From positions 1 to 4,888 of the IMG/VR virus record IMGVR_UViG_3300029610_000167: a stretch of DNA of 4,888 nucleotides. One strand, given 5' to 3'. This stretch comes from a virus (taxonomy: Duplodnaviria; Heunggongvirae; Uroviricota; Caudoviricetes). Below are positions 1-4,888 of this stretch, one piece after another; the stretch's first letter is position 1, and each line of letters starts with the position of its first letter. The position numbers were made by a program, and so were the translations under genes. The notes beneath the pieces were generated by a model. It ran no database searches and had not been told where the DNA came from. It saw nothing but the letters and a program-made list of their open reading frames with translations.

Positions 1-261
1 CGCGATAACGTCGTCCGAATCATTAAAAACGCAATGCTGGATATCGGCCTGGCTATGCCTGTGAAAATCCGTATTGAGTGCCACATGCCGGATCGCCGTC
101 GCCGTGACCTGGATAATCTGCAAAAAGCCGCTTTTGACGCACTCACCAAAGCAGGTTTCTGGCTGGATGATGTTCAGGTCGTTGATTACCGTGTTGTGAA
201 GATGCCCGTTACCAAAGGTGGGAAGCTGGAGCTGACCATCACCGAACTGGGGAATGAATGA
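1..261 (+). CDS. rusA: Holliday junction resolvase RusA, C-terminal part (5' end lies upstream of the window)
   Basis: Frame 1 is open from base 1 and ends at TGA 259-261. The translation ([86 protein letters not shown]) matches lambdoid-prophage RusA almost residue for residue from memory. Partial gene. Confidence 0.9.
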
Positions 262-398
262 TGTTTGAGTCTTATATGGCAGAACGTCTTCGCCACCGCT
301 GGATACGCCTGCGCTTATATCGTTTCCCCGGTTCTGTTTTGACCGATTACCGGATACTGAAGAATTACGCCAAAACACTGAAAGGAGCTGCCGCATGA
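258..398 (+). CDS. ylcG: Small 46-aa lambdoid-prophage protein, YlcG-like
   Basis: ORF not in the supplied track (too short). ATG 258 (second ATG at 261) to TGA 396-398, translating [46 protein letters not shown]. Its start overlaps the rusA stop and its stop overlaps the next gene's ATG (ATGA), and a GGGGA lies just upstream. Length, position after rusA and sequence fit my recollection of DLP12 YlcG. Confidence 0.6.
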
Positions 399-1063
399 AT
401 ACCCAATATTTACAGTATGTCCGCGAGCAACTCATTGTGGCTACTGCTGATTTGAGCGGAGCAACGAAAGGCCAGCTTGAAGCCTGGCTGGAGCATGCAC
501 AATTTGATACTGGTACATATAAACGAAAGAAGCCGCGCATTCTGGATGAGGTAACGGGCAAGATGATTACGCTGGATAATCCGCCGATTTCCGGTAAGCA
601 GTCGTACGCAAAAGGTTCATCCATTGCACTGGTCAGCCAGGTTGAGTTCTCAACATCTTCATGGCGCCGCGCGGTTCTGTCTCTCGATGAACATCAGAAA
701 GCGTGGTTGCTGTGGAATTACAGCGAAAGTGTTCGCTGGGAGCATCAGGTTGCCATAACGCAGTGGGCATGGAATGAGTTTAAGGCTCTGTTAGGTACAA
801 GAAAAATTGCCAGTAAGACACAGGAACGCTTAAAGAAGTTGATCTGGCTGGCTGCACAGGATGTGAAGAACGAACTGGTAGGGCGTAAGACCTATGAATA
901 CAAAGAGCTGGCATCACTGGTGGGAGTGACATCAAAAAACTGGTCTGAGACATTCACTGAACGCTGGGTTGCAATGAAGCACATTTTTCTACAGCTTGAT
1001 AGCGAAGCTTTATTGCTTGTAACGAGAACACGTTCAAAACAAAAGGCGACATTTTCACAGTAA
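395..1063 (+). CDS. Putative late-gene antitermination protein Q (non-lambda Q family), 222 aa
   Basis: ATG 395 is preceded by AAAGGAG (381-387) at 7-nt spacing. The gene sits in the canonical slot for Q: after rusA/ylcG and just before a strong sigma70-like promoter and the lysis cassette. No similarity to lambda Q (no Cys-rich zinc-finger region); the call rests on synteny and size, not on recognised motifs. Confidence 0.55.
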   Translation: MNTQYLQYVREQLIVATADLSGATKGQLEAWLEHAQFDTGTYKRKKPRILDEVTGKMITLDNPPISGKQSYAKGSSIALVSQVEFSTSSWRRAVLSLDEHQKAWLLWNYSESVRWEHQVAITQWAWNEFKALLGTRKIASKTQERLKKLIWLAAQDVKNELVGRKTYEYKELASLVGVTSKNWSETFTERWVAMKHIFLQLDSEALLLVTRTRSKQKATFSQ

Positions 1064-1067
1064 AGCA

Positions 1068-1096
1068 TTGCTAAACTGGATTAAAAAGCATATATT
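1068..1096 (+). promoter_or_regulatory. Candidate late promoter (pR'-like): -35 TTGCTA (1068-1073), 17-bp spacer, -10 TATATT (1091-1096)
   Basis: Near-consensus sigma70 hexamers with optimal 17-bp spacing, starting 5 bp after the stop of the Q-like gene, which is where lambdoid phages place pR' and the Q-utilisation site. Predicted transcription start near 1103. Confidence 0.4.
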
Positions 1097-1151
1097 TTAT
1101 GCAAATCTGATATTCTGCCAATGTTGTACGCACTGGCAGTAATCCAAATTC

Positions 1152-1186
1152 AAGCCCGAGGTTTAAAGCCTTGGGCTTATTCTTTG
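1152..1186 (+). terminator. Candidate intrinsic terminator (tR'-like); may also terminate the reverse-strand gene
   Basis: 10-bp stem AAGCCCGAGG (1152-1161) pairing with CCTTGGGCTT (1169-1178), one G-U pair, 7-nt loop, followed by ATTCTTTG. It lies about 50-85 nt downstream of the candidate promoter. On the minus strand the same hairpin is followed by GAATTTGGATT and lies about 65 nt past the stop of the 1250-1561 gene. Confidence 0.4.
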
Positions 1187-1249
1187 AAGATAGTACACAA
1201 TAATTGTGAATTTGAGCACAAATCTAATAATCGTGGTTTTGGTTCTTTC

Positions 1250-1561
1250 TTATCTTGATAAAGCGTTATTAATATTTTGACAGTAACGGGAGGGAACCTT
1301 AATCGTGTGATTTTCGATTTCAGGTTCAAAAACTACAGAGTCAGCTTTGTAATAAGGGAAGTAAAGGATGTACTTTGGACCGGCAAAACCAGTGATATAT
1401 GTGTAGGCTTCTACTTTTGCCACCTCACCAAACCAAGTGTAACTTGAGTCGTTAGCCGTGATGCAGTCACCTTGAACATATTTTCCTTCAGAATCGGAGG
1501 CAAAGCATGCAGTGATTGTGCTGCACAGTAATAATATTAAAGTTATTTGAATTGCTTTCAT
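1250..1561 (-). CDS. Hypothetical exported protein or lipoprotein, ~103 aa, in an AT-rich moron; function unknown
   Basis: The track ORF 1250-1573 begins with TTG; the first ATG is at 1561-1559 with a weak GGAAAA upstream. The N-terminus MKAIQITLILLLCSTITAC-FASD has a basic n-region and hydrophobic core, with both a lipobox-like I-T-A-C and an A-x-A-type signal peptidase I site. The mature part has two Cys (GDC... and ...RYCQ) and is rich in Tyr. The gene is visibly AT-rich relative to its flanks and antisense to the late operon. Confidence 0.6.
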   Translation of the reverse strand: MKAIQITLILLLCSTITACFASDSEGKYVQGDCITANDSSYTWFGEVAKVEAYTYITGFAGPKYILYFPYYKADSVVFEPEIENHTIKVPSRYCQNINNALSR

Positions 1562-1872
1562 TTGTTTTTCCAATGCTTTGGTTCGTTAATTTGATTTTTT
1601 TCTAGCTTTCTTCATGAGCCCTTATAGATTTTTTAATTAATCTAACTAATCATCCTTCTTTGAAATACATCCTGAATTGGTGAGTCAGAACTCAGCTTAG
1701 GATAATCAGGAAATATTGCAACTAACTCTGAAACCAACAGCGTAGACCTTTTTTATCTTTGGTCTTTGAGGGAGTTTTAACCTCGTGCTTTGTCGTTAAA
1801 TTACCTCGTGAACAAACTTTCTGTCATTTAACGTCCCGGCCTTTTGTCGGCGGCGAAACATTGGCTATTCAT

Positions 1873-2178
1873 ATGCACGAAAAAGAGAGCCTTGCCGGAG
1901 CGTTCTGGCTCGTTTTGCTGATCATCGCAGGTTGGGGCGGTCTGGTCCGCTACCTGATAGATGTGAAGCAGAGTAAAGCAACGTGGAGTTGGATAAATGC
2001 TCTGGCTCAAATAGTGGTATCAGGATTCACCGGTGTTATTGGTGGCCTGATCAGCATCGAAAGTGGATTCAGTATTTACATGATTCTCGCGACAGCGGGG
2101 ATTAGTGGTGCGATGGGTTCGGTTGCACTGACGTACTTCTGGGAACGACTGACAGGGGTGAAAAATGCAAAATCTTAA
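1873..2178 (+). CDS. Putative class I holin (three predicted transmembrane segments), 101 aa; not lambda S-like
   Basis: Immediately upstream of and overlapping the endolysin gene by 14 nt. Three hydrophobic stretches (AFWLVLLIIAGWGGLVRYL; INALAQIVVSGFTGVIGGLISI; SIYMILATAGISGAMGSVALTYFW) and a short charged C-terminus ([11 protein letters not shown]). First ATG of the track ORF is at 1873; the 38 codons upstream of it start with TTG and look like read-through, not coding. Shine-Dalgarno is weak, so the start is uncertain. Confidence 0.7.
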   Translation: MHEKESLAGAFWLVLLIIAGWGGLVRYLIDVKQSKATWSWINALAQIVVSGFTGVIGGLISIESGFSIYMILATAGISGAMGSVALTYFWERLTGVKNAKS

Positions 2179-2641
2179 TCCTCAGCGCAAAGCCTTCCTC
2201 GATATGTTGGCGTGGTCAGAAGGAACGGATAATGGGCGACAACCGACACGTAACCACGGCTACGACGTTATTGTAGGTGGTGAGTTATTCACGGATTACT
2301 CCGATCATCCTCGCAAACTTGTCACGCTAAACCCAAAACTCAAATCAACAGCCGCCGGGCGCTACCAGCTTCTTTCCCGTTGGTGGGATGCCTATCGTAA
2401 GCAGCTTGGCCTGAAAGACTTCTCTCCCAAAAGCCAGGACGCTGTGGCATTGCAGCAGATTAAAGAGCGTGGCGCTTTACCGATGATTGATCGCGGTGAT
2501 ATCCGTCAGGCAATCGACCGTTGCAGCAATATCTGGGCTTCACTGCCGGGGGCTGGTTATGGTCAGTTCGAGCATAAGGCTGACAGTTTGATTTCAAAAT
2601 TCAAAGAAGCAGGCGGAACGGTCAGAGAGATTGAGGTATGA
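2165..2641 (+). CDS. R: Endolysin R, lambda-type lytic transglycosylase, 158 aa
   Basis: The translation is near-identical to lambda R as I recall it ([148 protein letters not shown]). Its stop overlaps the Rz start (ATGA at 2638-2641). Confidence 0.95.
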
Positions 2642-3099
2642 GCAGAGTAACCGAGATTATCTCCGCTCTGATTATCTGCATCATCGTCTGCCTGTCATGG
2701 GCTGTTAATCATTACCGTGATAACGCCATTACCTACAAAGCCCAGCGCGACAAAAATGCCAGAGAACTGAAGCTGGCGAACTCGACAATTACTGATATGC
2801 AGCTTCGCCAGCGTGATGTTGCTGACCTCGATGCAAAATACACGAAGGAGTTAGATGATGCGAAATCTGAAAATGATGCTCTGCGTGATGATGTTGCCGC
2901 TGGTCGTCGTCGGTTGCGCATCAAAGCAGTCTGTCCGTCCGTGCGTGAATCCACCACCGCCTCCGGCGTGGATAATGCAGCCTCCCCCCGACTGGCAGAC
3001 ACCGCTGAACGGAATTATTTCACCCTCAGAGATAGACTGATAATAATGCAGAAACAACTGGAAGGGACTCAGCAGTATATTAAGGAACAGTGCAGATAA
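2638..3099 (+). CDS. Rz: Spanin inner-membrane subunit Rz (i-spanin), 153 aa
   Basis: N-terminal transmembrane segment ([17 protein letters not shown]) followed by a charged coiled-coil-like periplasmic domain; the sequence closely matches lambda Rz from memory. Start is coupled to the R stop. Confidence 0.95.
2858..3040 (+). CDS. Rz1: Spanin outer-membrane lipoprotein subunit Rz1 (o-spanin), embedded in the +1 frame of Rz
   Basis: Entirely inside Rz in a different frame. AGGAG (2846-2850) lies 7 nt before ATG 2858; an in-frame ATG at 2855 is an alternative start and gives the 61-aa track ORF. Lipobox VVVGC, proline-rich [18 protein letters not shown]; matches lambda Rz1 from memory. Confidence 0.9.
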
Positions 3100-3123
3100 A
3101 GTTGCCCATATTGATGGGCAACT
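3100..3123. terminator. Perfect hairpin between convergent Rz and bor; candidate bidirectional terminator
   Basis: AGTTGCCCAT (3100-3109), 4-nt loop ATTG, ATGGGCAACT (3114-3123): a perfect 10-bp inverted repeat starting 1 nt after the Rz stop and ending 7 nt before the bor stop. The flanking U-tracts are only moderate on either strand. Confidence 0.5.
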
Positions 3124-3130
3124 CATGCAA

Positions 3131-3424
3131 TTATTGTGAGCAATATACCCGTGCTTCCAGCGGAGTATAAATGCCAAAAGTGATGAAACCGAGCAATCCA
3201 TTTACGAATGTTTGCTGGGTTTCTGTTTTAACAACATTTTCTGCGCCGCCACAAATTTTGGCTGCATCAACAGTTTTCTCCTGTCCAATTCCCGAAACGA
3301 AGAAGTGATGGGTGATGGTTTCCTTTGGTGTTACTGCTGTCGGTTTGTTTCCAACAGTAAATGTCTGTTGAGCACATCCTGTAATAAGCATTGCCAGAGC
3401 GGCAGAAAACAACATTTTTTTCAT
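3131..3424 (-). CDS. bor: Bor lipoprotein (serum-resistance / Iss-family outer-membrane lipoprotein), 97 aa
   Basis: From the ATG at 3424-3422 the product is MKKMLFSAALAMLITGCAQQTFTVGNKPTAVTPKETITHHFFVSGIGQEKTVDAAKICGGAENVVKTETQQTFVNGLLGFITFGIYTPLEARVYCSQ, near-identical to lambda Bor from memory. Lipobox LITGC; AGGA precedes the start. The track ORF 3131-3472 carries 16 extra N-terminal codons that I do not consider coding. Confidence 0.95.
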   Translation of the reverse strand: MKKMLFSAALAMLITGCAQQTFTVGNKPTAVTPKETITHHFFVSGIGQEKTVDAAKICGGAENVVKTETQQTFVNGLLGFITFGIYTPLEARVYCSQ

Positions 3425-3440
3425 CTTATTATCCTGCATT

Positions 3441-3469
3441 GTTAAAAACGGCAGAATCCTATGTGACAA
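3441..3469 (-). promoter_or_regulatory. Candidate bor promoter (minus strand): -35 TTGTCA, 17-bp spacer, -10 TTTAAC
   Basis: Read on the minus strand: TTGTCA (complement of 3464-3469), 17-nt spacer, TTTAAC (complement of 3441-3446), about 20 nt upstream of the bor ATG. Hexamer match only, so a weak call. Confidence 0.3.
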
Positions 3470-3854
3470 CAATTAAACGATAGTTAAATGAATTGATGAA
3501 AATTAAAACTACACAGGTGGACGCTCAGACTATTGGAGGGAGTTGGGGACACTCAGAATCCTGTGGAATGAAATAAACCGCTCTATCTGTCCTTTACCCT
3601 TTTAGCTGCGCTGTATCGTCGCCGTATTCCCGCATTAACAATGACCGTAGCCCGACGGGGAACTCCTCTGCGCGAGTGTGCGGAAATAATCAAAAACGAT
3701 GCACACCGGGTTTTTACCGCGCTAATTATTCGCGGGTTTGTCCCTCATGCTCGCAAGTTCTGTGTGGGGGCGAAGAAACAGGACATGTATTCTAGTCTGT
3801 GCGACCGTGGTCGTTCAGATTTTCATTCGTTTTGCGGAGTAAACCAGAGCGGTT

Positions 3855-3905
3855 GGCGGGTCCTCCTGGCGATTTGAAACACCGGGGGGCTGCGGACACG
3901 CGGAA
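3855..3905. other. Candidate cos region (cosQ/cosN-like) preceding the terminase genes
   Basis: GGCGGGTCCTCCTGGCGATTTGAAACACCG followed by GGGGGCTGCGGACACGCGGAAAACGG resembles, from memory, the lambda right end (ACGGGTCCTTTCCGGTGATCCGACAGGTTACG) followed by cosN (GGGCGGCGACCT) and CGCGGGTTTTCG. It is divergent, and the exact nick positions cannot be set from sequence. Location ~110 bp upstream of the terminase small subunit gene is as expected. Confidence 0.35.
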
Positions 3906-4016
3906 AACGGCTGGTTTTTTGCATTTTATCGGCATCATCATCTTTTATCTAACCTGTTGATATTTCAGTTGTGAAATTATTCACGATGTCGATTCGCTTA
4001 AATATTGTTCATCATC

Positions 4017-4523
4017 ATGGATAACGAACTGAAAAATCTTCGCCTCAATATTAACCAGCTGGCGGCGCTGACTAATCTGCATCGTCAGACCGTCGCAAGT
4101 AGACTGAGCAATGTTGAGCCTGCCCCCGGAAGTAACTCCCGCCTCAAGCTGTATTCGGTTCTGGATATTCTCAGGGAATTACTGGGCAGGACTACGACGC
4201 CGGAGCTGGTTGCTGTTGACAAAATGACACCGCCGGATCGAAAGGCATGGTTTCAGTCTGAGCGGGAGCGCCTCAAGTTTCAGCAGGAGACCGGAGAGCT
4301 TATCCCGGCCTCAGAAGTCAGCCGGGAGTTTGCCTCAATGGCAAAAGTTGTCGTTCAGGTACTGGAAACGCTACCGGATATTCTCGAGCGTGACTGTGCA
4401 ATGACACCGTCAGCCGTCGTCAGGGTGCAAAAAGTCATAGATGACCTGCGGGATCAGATTGCCATGAAGGTTGAGCTGGCAGAGTCGCCGGAACAGGAGG
4501 ACAGTTTGTCACAAGAGGAGTAA
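4017..4523 (+). CDS. Putative terminase small subunit (Nu1-like DNA-recognition subunit), 168 aa
   Basis: Immediately upstream of the GpA-family large terminase, with its stop 3 nt before that gene's ATG. The N-terminus has a helix-turn-helix-like segment (LNINQLAALTNLHRQTVASRL), and the C-terminus is acidic. The track ORF starts at TTG 4005; the first ATG is 4017. No clear Shine-Dalgarno, so the start is uncertain. No clear sequence identity to lambda Nu1. Confidence 0.65.
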   Translation: MDNELKNLRLNINQLAALTNLHRQTVASRLSNVEPAPGSNSRLKLYSVLDILRELLGRTTTPELVAVDKMTPPDRKAWFQSERERLKFQQETGELIPASEVSREFASMAKVVVQVLETLPDILERDCAMTPSAVVRVQKVIDDLRDQIAMKVELAESPEQEDSLSQEE

Positions 4524-4526
4524 GCC

Positions 4527-4888
4527 ATGCGACAGGCCACGGCGGCGGAAGTCAGAAAGAATACCGCCGGGATCATAAAGGCACCGCGTCGGATGCCTGT
4601 TGCCGAGGCCGTTCATAAGTACATGCGGGTTCCCGTGGGCGTCGGAAACTCCGTCGAATGGGATCCGCAACTCGCCCCCTATGTCGTGGAGCCGATGAAC
4701 TGCCTGGCATCACGTGAGTATGATGCTGTTATTTTTGTTGGTCCGGCCCGAACAGGTAAAACAATTGGGCTGATTGACGGCTGGGTGGTGTACAACGTGG
4801 TGTGTGACCCGTCGGATATGCTTATCGTCCAGATGACGGAAGAAAAAGCGCGTGAACACTCCAAAAAACGTCTGGCCAGAACATTTCG
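4527..4888 (+). CDS. Terminase large subunit, GpA family (N-terminal ATPase region; continues past the window end)
   Basis: Frame 3 is open from ATG 4527 to the window end and is absent from the track because there is no stop. AAGAGGAG (4513-4520) lies 6 nt upstream. The translation contains a Walker A P-loop, VIFVGPARTGKTIGLIDG, in the position where lambda gpA has its NVVKSARVGYSKMLLG segment, and the overall layout resembles the gpA N-terminus. Confidence 0.85.
   Translation, partial: MRQATAAEVRKNTAGIIKAPRRMPVAEAVHKYMRVPVGVGNSVEWDPQLAPYVVEPMNCLASREYDAVIFVGPARTGKTIGLIDGWVVYNVVCDPSDMLIVQMTEEKAREHSKKRLARTF

Follow-up and report, generated by a model that had tools for sequence, protein, structure and literature searches.

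A family of small exported proteins with a predicted SH3-like fold, carried between Q and holin in lambdoid prophages and in integrons and islands

Lambdoid prophages carry morons in the slot between the antiterminator gene Q and the holin gene (the Q-S slot). Shiga toxin and the porin gene nmpC are among them, and cargo in this position is therefore often relevant to fitness or virulence. The envelope-protein moron in the Q-S slot is a well known kind of element, of which the prophage DLP12 of Escherichia coli K-12 offers an example in the order rusA-ylcG-quuD-(nmpC, minus strand)-essD-rrrD-rzpD/rzoD-borD. In this work we analysed a stretch of 4,888 nucleotides from a virus of the class Caudoviricetes (IMG/VR record IMGVR_UViG_3300029610_000167, positions 1 to 4,888; hereafter the window), which is the late-control and lysis region of a lambdoid prophage and has the order rusA-ylcG-Q-(gene, minus strand)-holin-R-Rz/Rz1-bor. 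The gene in brackets, at 1250-1561, is the subject of this report. It shares slot and orientation with nmpC, and both products are exported envelope proteins, by prediction in the case of the window gene. NmpC, however, is an outer-membrane porin of about 365 amino acids, whereas the window gene would supply a soluble or tethered SH3-like protein of 103 amino acids, and there is no homology between the two.

What is new is the protein family, which none of the sources searched describes and whose members, in Gammaproteobacteria, are stand-alone genes that move horizontally; that it circulates between prophages, integrons and islands is modestly surprising. We are highly confident that the product is an exported protein under purifying selection, with a confidently predicted SH3-like fold and two conserved cysteines, and that the gene is mobile cargo of the slot. 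The features of the gene and of the segment that bears it are as follows.

1184-1783, AT-rich cassette of 600 bp bearing the gene (BLAST boundaries against E. coli L9 and phage PhiR47_2)
1250-1561, minus strand, gene for the small exported protein, 103 codons plus TAA (open reading frame list, translation and family homologs)
1499-1561, minus strand, predicted signal peptide, residues 1-21, MKAIQITLILLLCSTITACFA (PROSITE-rule script and clade comparison)
1277-1483, minus strand, predicted core domain (residues 27-95), SH3-like beta-barrel of five strands and a short helix (structural model)
1463-1465, minus strand, codon of Cys33 in the GDC motif, proposed disulfide partner
1280-1282, minus strand, codon of Cys94, proposed disulfide partner

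The gene, its family and its product

The open reading frame starts with an ATG at 1561, stops with a TAA at 1252-1250 and specifies 103 amino acids, nine of which are tyrosines. Cysteines stand at positions 13, 19, 33 and 94, and only Cys33 (GDC) and Cys94 (RYC) lie downstream of Ala21. A TTG at 1573 was rejected as an alternative start because the N-termini of the family align with the ATG at 1561. An identical protein (P0002) is present in 119 blocks of the collection, and intact alleles of 103 amino acids occur in E. coli, Escherichia albertii, Escherichia fergusonii and Escherichia sp. An earlier note on this DNA, made from the letters alone, had counted a reading frame interrupted or not conserved in close relatives as evidence against its proposal; the frame is unbroken in all full-length Escherichia alleles. 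Between two Enterobacter-type alleles the ratio of nonsynonymous to synonymous substitution rates (dN/dS) is 0.136, with the amino acid changes falling almost entirely in the signal peptide. On these sequence grounds 1250-1561 is a real, selected gene, whose product is predicted to be exported by the Sec pathway with about 82 mature residues.

The missing annotation, the lack of a clear promoter and the AT-rich surroundings could be taken to suggest a spurious or decaying open reading frame without function. However, an exhaustive search finds family members with E values as low as 1e-25, motifs of the family are invariant, dN/dS is about 0.14, full-length alleles all keep the frame and the fold is confidently predicted. 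This conservation refutes the idea of a spurious frame, whose probability we consider negligible.

Within the Escherichia alleles the mature domain is almost invariant apart from residue 60 (1382-1384, minus strand), the sole variable loop position, where alanine, serine, threonine or valine is found within G-F-x-G-P. The variation, seen in a small sample, may mean that residue 60 makes contacts and is under pressure to diversify.

The window protein has no match in Pfam, PHROGs, NCBIfam or PADLOC, and tblastn against 50,697 phage genomes returned no match to it. Searching the literature by accession and topic found nothing on this protein; a paper on the prophage small RNA svsR was set aside as unrelated to the gene. 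A word-indexed search of 5.8 billion proteins retrieved a single cluster, restricted to Escherichia, whose members are all named 'hypothetical protein'. An exhaustive HMMER search of 1.84 billion representatives yielded 40 clusters (at 50% identity) with E<1e-3, the best match being at 1e-25 with 52% identity and nearly all matches being 90-110 amino acids long, and a profile search yielded 112 clusters, none of them named or with a Pfam domain. PADLOC and PHROG scans of 103 family members gave no annotated family, and the family profile run against the sequences in the PDB gave only noise (E>=0.36).

Two alignments of the family (A1 and A2) define the motif KYxxGDCITPtDxSYSWYGxYAxVEA...YiLxFPxYxSNSxIF..IExxTxKV....C. 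Cys33 and Tyr64 are invariant in A1, where Cys94 is kept in at least 90% of the sequences; in A2 the invariant residues are Asp32, Ile34, Thr35 and Tyr64, and both cysteines are at least 90% conserved. Sequences without Cys94 are mainly truncated or hybrid. Thus the earlier description of an unassigned, exported small protein with two cysteines was borne out by the translation, by the signal sequences of its relatives (see below) and by the conservation of Cys33 and Cys94. The C-terminal C-Q motif to which the note had also pointed is not a family feature, since the residue after Cys94 is variable. The polar and aromatic part of the motif, KYxxGDCITPtDxSYSWYG, is kept across very different hosts. 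When KYxxGDCITP was back-translated into a DNA pattern, 12 matches were obtained in genomes: five are true family members, L025 and L026 are weak matches to the family hidden Markov model (HMM; E about 1e-4), and the remaining five, Clostridia-type sequences included, had no match to the family HMM. P0016, P0019 and P0022 are extended at the C-terminus by a further domain of some 100 residues that matches nothing in Pfam (L018 5316-5912); the extensions of P0019 and P0022 contain cysteines and appear beta-rich by eye.

The N-terminus of the window protein consists of a basic n-region (K2) and a hydrophobic stretch of 16-19 residues, ending in two overlapping processing sites, the lipobox-like ITA↓C19 and the signal peptidase I type CFA↓S22 (arrows, cleavage). 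The earlier note had read here a signal sequence with a possible lipobox. Export stands, as a signal sequence is predicted in all 140 family members with a complete N-terminus. The ITA-C site of the window, with K2, hydrophobic residues 3-18 and I-T-A-C19, does fit the PROSITE PS51257 lipobox rule, which is a pattern match and no proof of lipidation; a lipobox is found in only 44 of the 140, which makes a lipoprotein less likely. Enterobacter and Citrobacter prophages carry a sister clade, with 64-65% identity to the window protein, that conserves the end of the signal peptide as [C/G]-x-A↓S/A-D/E-E-x-G-K-Y. In this clade the residue before the cysteine is either incompatible with a lipobox (N, Y or T) or compatible with it (G, A or S), and in P0152 and L069 the cysteine itself is replaced by glycine. 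Because [C/G]-x-A↓S is kept and the lipobox is not, cleavage by signal peptidase I after Ala21 is the conserved reading, and the conserved feature would be an ordinary cleavage site. Cleavage at this point would release a soluble periplasmic protein of 82 residues with exactly two cysteines. In our judgement lipidation of the Escherichia allele at Cys19 is possible but the less probable of the two outcomes, and it is not a requirement of the family.

When AlphaFold was given the 103-sequence alignment, the mean predicted local distance difference test score (pLDDT) was 84, reaching about 96 over residues 30-95; from the single sequence it was 40, with no usable model. In this confident model the core forms an SH3-like beta-barrel whose five strands are at 33-36, 47-55, 62-67, 77-78 and 86-89, with a short helix at 80-85 and a loop at 56-61. 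The beta-strand-like aromatic core that the earlier note had described agrees with the model at 47-55 and 62-67, while its middle part, 56-61, is modelled as a loop. One of the conserved cysteines is on strand 1 and the other is C-terminal; their joint conservation and the predicted periplasmic location suggest a Cys33-Cys94 disulfide. Foldseek searches of the PDB returned PsaE, NdhS, PWWP, chromo and KOW domains (best E = 0.05), and no significant fold match was found among the viral models of BFVD, where the best had E = 0.02 and all were uncharacterised. The fold searches returned only SH3-like small barrels, with CarD/Tudor and CAP-Gly among the neighbours. The fold class is clear from the model, without a specific structural relative.

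These results bear on the proposal that the protein is a true lysozyme inhibitor of the MliC/PliC family, the members of which form an eight-stranded barrel. The proposal draws on a similar size, a signal peptide and cysteines near both ends of the mature part. However, none of the 103 members matches PF09864 at E<=1, and the hhalign alignment of A2 with E. coli MliC covers signal-peptide residues 1-21 only, so the hypothesis fails on membership. The fold differs as well, as the model is five-stranded and SH3-like, and MliC/PliC structures, which are present in the PDB, are not among the matches listed. We regard membership in this family as extremely improbable.

The Q-holin slot and vehicles outside prophages

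The earlier note had suggested looking for homologs at the Q-holin junction of other prophages, and such homologs do exist. In prophages of Escherichia, Enterobacter and Citrobacter the family gene is found in the interval from Q to holin and runs antisense to both. The family gene is flanked by a PF06323 Q and a Phage_holin_3_1 holin in L068, whereas L069 has a PF03589 Q with a DnaJ-type zinc finger, a Phage_holin_3_1 holin and a PF00959 lysozyme. Six Citrobacter loci, short prophage remnants included, combine a PF06323 Q with a Phage_holin_2_3 holin. Thus the slot recurs with two Q families (PF06323 and PF03589), three holin families (3_3, 3_1 and 2_3) and different endolysins, which indicates that the cargo is tied to the slot and not to the lysis system. 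In two of the Citrobacter loci (L073 and L075, 190-7569) what remains of the prophage is short: integrase, RusA, Q, the family gene, holin and lysozyme are kept, and past the lysis genes there is an Abi_alpha gene. Here the cargo gene has outlasted the decay of its prophage.

As the gene always adjoins the holin gene in prophages and its product would be periplasmic, it could be thought to regulate lysis, as an antiholin or a periplasmic factor of the RI type with the neighbouring holin or endolysin as its target. We reject this idea because the gene is antisense to the late operon, the holins belong to three unrelated families and accompany different endolysins, and relatives are found in non-phage contexts. 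Moreover, the gene is missing from lysis cassettes that are otherwise nearly identical. A role in lysis is therefore very improbable.

The neighbouring features of the window against which the cassette is placed are listed below.

34-261, RusA
258-398, YlcG
395-1063, plus strand, antiterminator Q (PF06323, Pfam E = 5e-96), left flank of the slot
1068-1096, plus strand, PR'-like late promoter directly 3' of Q (promoter scan, TTGCTA-17-TATATT; kept in PhiR47_2)
1152-1178, plus strand, tR'-like hairpin terminator of the late leader RNA (terminator scan)
1873-2178, plus strand, holin (Phage_holin_3_3, Pfam E = 7.5e-22), right flank of the slot
2165-2641, plus strand, lambda R-type endolysin (relatives annotated as lysozyme R or glycoside hydrolase family 104)
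2638-3099, Rz, with Rz1 embedded at 2855-3040
3131-3424, minus strand, Bor homologue (294-nt Bor genes are annotated at the same position in relatives)
4017-4523, DUF1441 small-terminase-like gene, followed by the start of the large terminase

The cassette at 1184-1783 replaces about 134 bp of a Q-holin spacer that is empty in E. coli L9 and PhiR47_2, where Q and holin are about 320 bp apart; the Q region of E. coli L9 is 97.7% identical to that of the window, yet its spacer is empty. The GC content of the cassette is 31-41%, against about 50% in the flanks. Two marks of a moron are therefore present, an extra gene between otherwise adjacent genes and a deviant base composition. Across eight Escherichia loci the cassette is 99.3-100% identical, and the packaging modules of these loci differ (HK97-like, lambda Nu1/A and DUF1441/GpA). 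Searches of 5,426 complete RefSeq E. coli genomes, including at low stringency, did not find it. The insertion lies immediately 3' of tR', with the gene antisense to the late operon, and the tR' hairpin is 72 nt past the stop codon of the gene, an arrangement that is also seen in L069. This hairpin also folds on the minus strand (z = -3.1) and therefore may terminate transcription in both directions. The cassette of the window contains no attC site and no hairpin bounded by GTTRRRY/RYYYAAC.

Elsewhere in the window, Bor is a second antisense lysogenic-conversion gene of the late region, and the lysis cassette of this prophage is thus flanked on each side by a moron for an exported protein. The endolysin gene at 2165-2641 gave no Pfam match at E<=1e-3. 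The stretch of about 530 bp between bor and the DUF1441 gene (about 3480-4010) has no convincing open reading frame and a GC content of up to 55%, and is possibly the cos/packaging region. An Rfam match to the Salmonella small RNA isrJ at 1100-1179 (plus strand) is below threshold, with 27.1 bits against a gathering score of 37; it coincides with the short late-leader RNA, from just 3' of the PR'-like promoter through tR', and IsrJ itself may be a lambdoid PR' leader transcript.

The family is not confined to prophages. Plain chromosomal members are present in Serratia fonticola, Marinomonas, Halioglobus and SAR86, and in marine Gammaproteobacteria distant relatives occur as cassettes of integrons or as cargo of islands. 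P0058 (L034) is the first integron cassette beside a divergent IntI-type integrase of 318 amino acids; it is bounded by GTTAGGC and GCCTAAC...GTTAGGT cores that are attC-like, and the bottom strands of the cores fold as imperfect hairpins (z = -3.3 and -4.8). At L034 5660-7388 the integrase is followed by three cassettes for small exported proteins, separated by attC-like hairpins, and those after the family member encode a YedD-like lipoprotein and a secreted protein of 126 amino acids. Two loci (L011 8001-8727 and L012 402-1128) have the family gene and, 74 nt downstream of it in the same orientation, a gene of the Rap1a family (type VI secretion system amidase immunity; 27.8 bits against a cutoff of 27.7), the pair being inside an integrase/IS4 island. 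In an integrase-umuDC island the family gene is 19 bp upstream of, and co-oriented with, the gene of a membrane protein with a PG_binding_1 domain, and a YagK/YfjJ-type element of Colwellia has a member with an LRAT/NlpC-P60 gene nearby. Other members are in variable regions adjoining restriction or T5orf172 genes. No conserved partner gene was found among the neighbourhoods of family members.

This distribution must be taken into account when superinfection exclusion is considered. According to that proposal, also raised in the earlier note, the product would be a Cor/Llp-like outer-membrane lipoprotein, anchored through Cys19, that binds the periplasmic face of a receptor such as FhuA, LamB or OmpC and so keeps out competing phages. 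The gene is indeed prophage-borne, antisense to the late genes and in a classic slot for lysogenic conversion, and the window allele fits the lipobox rule and encodes a small protein capable of forming a disulfide, as Llp is. However, no PHROG, Pfam or viral structure links the protein to these factors, the closest clade has not kept the lipobox and one allele lacks the signal-peptide cysteine. Moreover, the same motif is found in marine bacteria, integrons and non-phage loci, where an enterobacterial receptor is an unlikely partner, and this spread argues against dependence on one particular enterobacterial receptor. We consider exclusion of this type rather improbable.

Possible function

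In the explanation that we prefer, the gene would be an independently expressed moron of the prophage, and Cys33 and Cys94 of its product would form a disulfide in the periplasm. The protein would be non-enzymatic and would bind a periplasmic or periplasm-facing target, protecting the envelope of the lysogen. Our preferred guess is that it inhibits an enzyme that arrives from outside and attacks the cell wall, or a phage entry factor, or gives immunity to one of these, in which case it would be a functional analogue, and not a homologue, of periplasmic inhibitors. Binding is favoured over catalysis because the domain has only about 70 residues, shows no catalytic signature and carries a conserved aromatic and polar surface motif. 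As this motif is shared by SAR86 and Escherichia, a conserved ligand is favoured over a host-specific receptor; such a ligand could be peptidoglycan, or else a conserved class of phage entry factors or of enzymes that come in and attack the envelope. The Rap1a, PG_binding_1 and NlpC/P60 neighbours are three independent weak hints that point in the same direction.

Several observations weigh against this explanation. Upstream of the gene there is no convincing sigma-70 promoter, the best candidate scoring 8/12 with a 19-nt spacer, and no promoter is conserved between the window gene and the sister clade (L069). The structural matches are at fold level only and non-significant in Foldseek (best E = 0.02-0.05). 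Each of the Rap1a, PG_binding_1 and NlpC/P60 hints comes from a single lineage, and most contexts are uninformative. Taken as a whole, with its observed and its conjectural parts, we consider the explanation moderately probable. That the protein is a protective inhibitor or immunity protein is a tentative proposal, which we would call possible rather than probable. More speculative still, and in our estimate unlikely, is that the family represents a new class, that of single-gene, periplasmic inhibitors or immunity proteins, SH3-like and disulfide-stapled, which protect against wall-degrading enzymes or phage entry and travel between bacteria in at least three vehicles, the prophage Q-S slot, integrons and islands. 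In that case one defence or immunity module would be common to lysogenic conversion by prophages and to the cassette pools of integrons.

Another use for a domain of this kind would be as a module that binds peptidoglycan or another envelope polymer, like the bacterial SH3b domains, and alters the wall or envelope, for instance by increasing resistance to stress or serum, as Bor does, instead of inhibiting an enzyme. The SH3-like fold, the predicted periplasmic location and the retention of the aromatic and polar motif in distant hosts are in agreement with it, as is the one lineage in which the gene is co-oriented 19 bp upstream of that of the PG_binding_1 protein. We nevertheless give a binding module acting in this way only a small probability.

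Whatever the target, purifying selection, a confident fold, recurrence in the slot in three genera and the spread to integrons and islands point to a self-sufficient, selectable envelope function. Should the protein indeed act in inhibition, immunity or exclusion, the few periplasmic protection proteins known so far would gain a new fold, and there would be a concrete case of one module that travels between prophages and integrons. If the protein confers no phenotype, it would be one more hypothetical moron.

Comparison with known systems

The SH3-like small barrels to which the model is closest in fold (PsaE, NdhS, CarD/Tudor, KOW and CAP-Gly) are cytoplasmic domains or domains of photosynthetic complexes, with 5-20% identity, whereas the window protein is predicted to be exported and has a conserved pair of cysteines. 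There is no sign of common descent or function.

Like Bor/Iss of lambda (PF06291), the window gene encodes a small exported protein, lies antisense in the late region and has the character of a lysogenic-conversion moron. Bor, however, has a conserved lipobox (LITGC), and the window family is mostly without one. The hhalign comparison of A2 with the Bor of the window itself gave a probability of 1.5% over 11 signal-peptide residues, and there was no match to PF06291.

With MliC/PliC (PF09864) the family has in common a length of about 100 amino acids, export, possible lipidation of some members and a cysteine pair; an eight-stranded barrel in the former stands against a five-stranded SH3-like barrel predicted for the latter. 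The two are possibly analogous as periplasmic inhibitors. Cor (phi80, N15 and HK022) and Llp (T5) are likewise small, phage-encoded, exported proteins that protect the host, and Llp needs a disulfide. The lipobox is not conserved in the window family, which is also widespread outside phages, and neither PHROG scans of the window protein and the 103 members nor BFVD gave a sequence or fold link to them.

Finally, integrons carry cassettes for small exported proteins. The copy in the window is carried by a prophage and has no attC; it is through its relative P0058 that the family resembles such cassettes.

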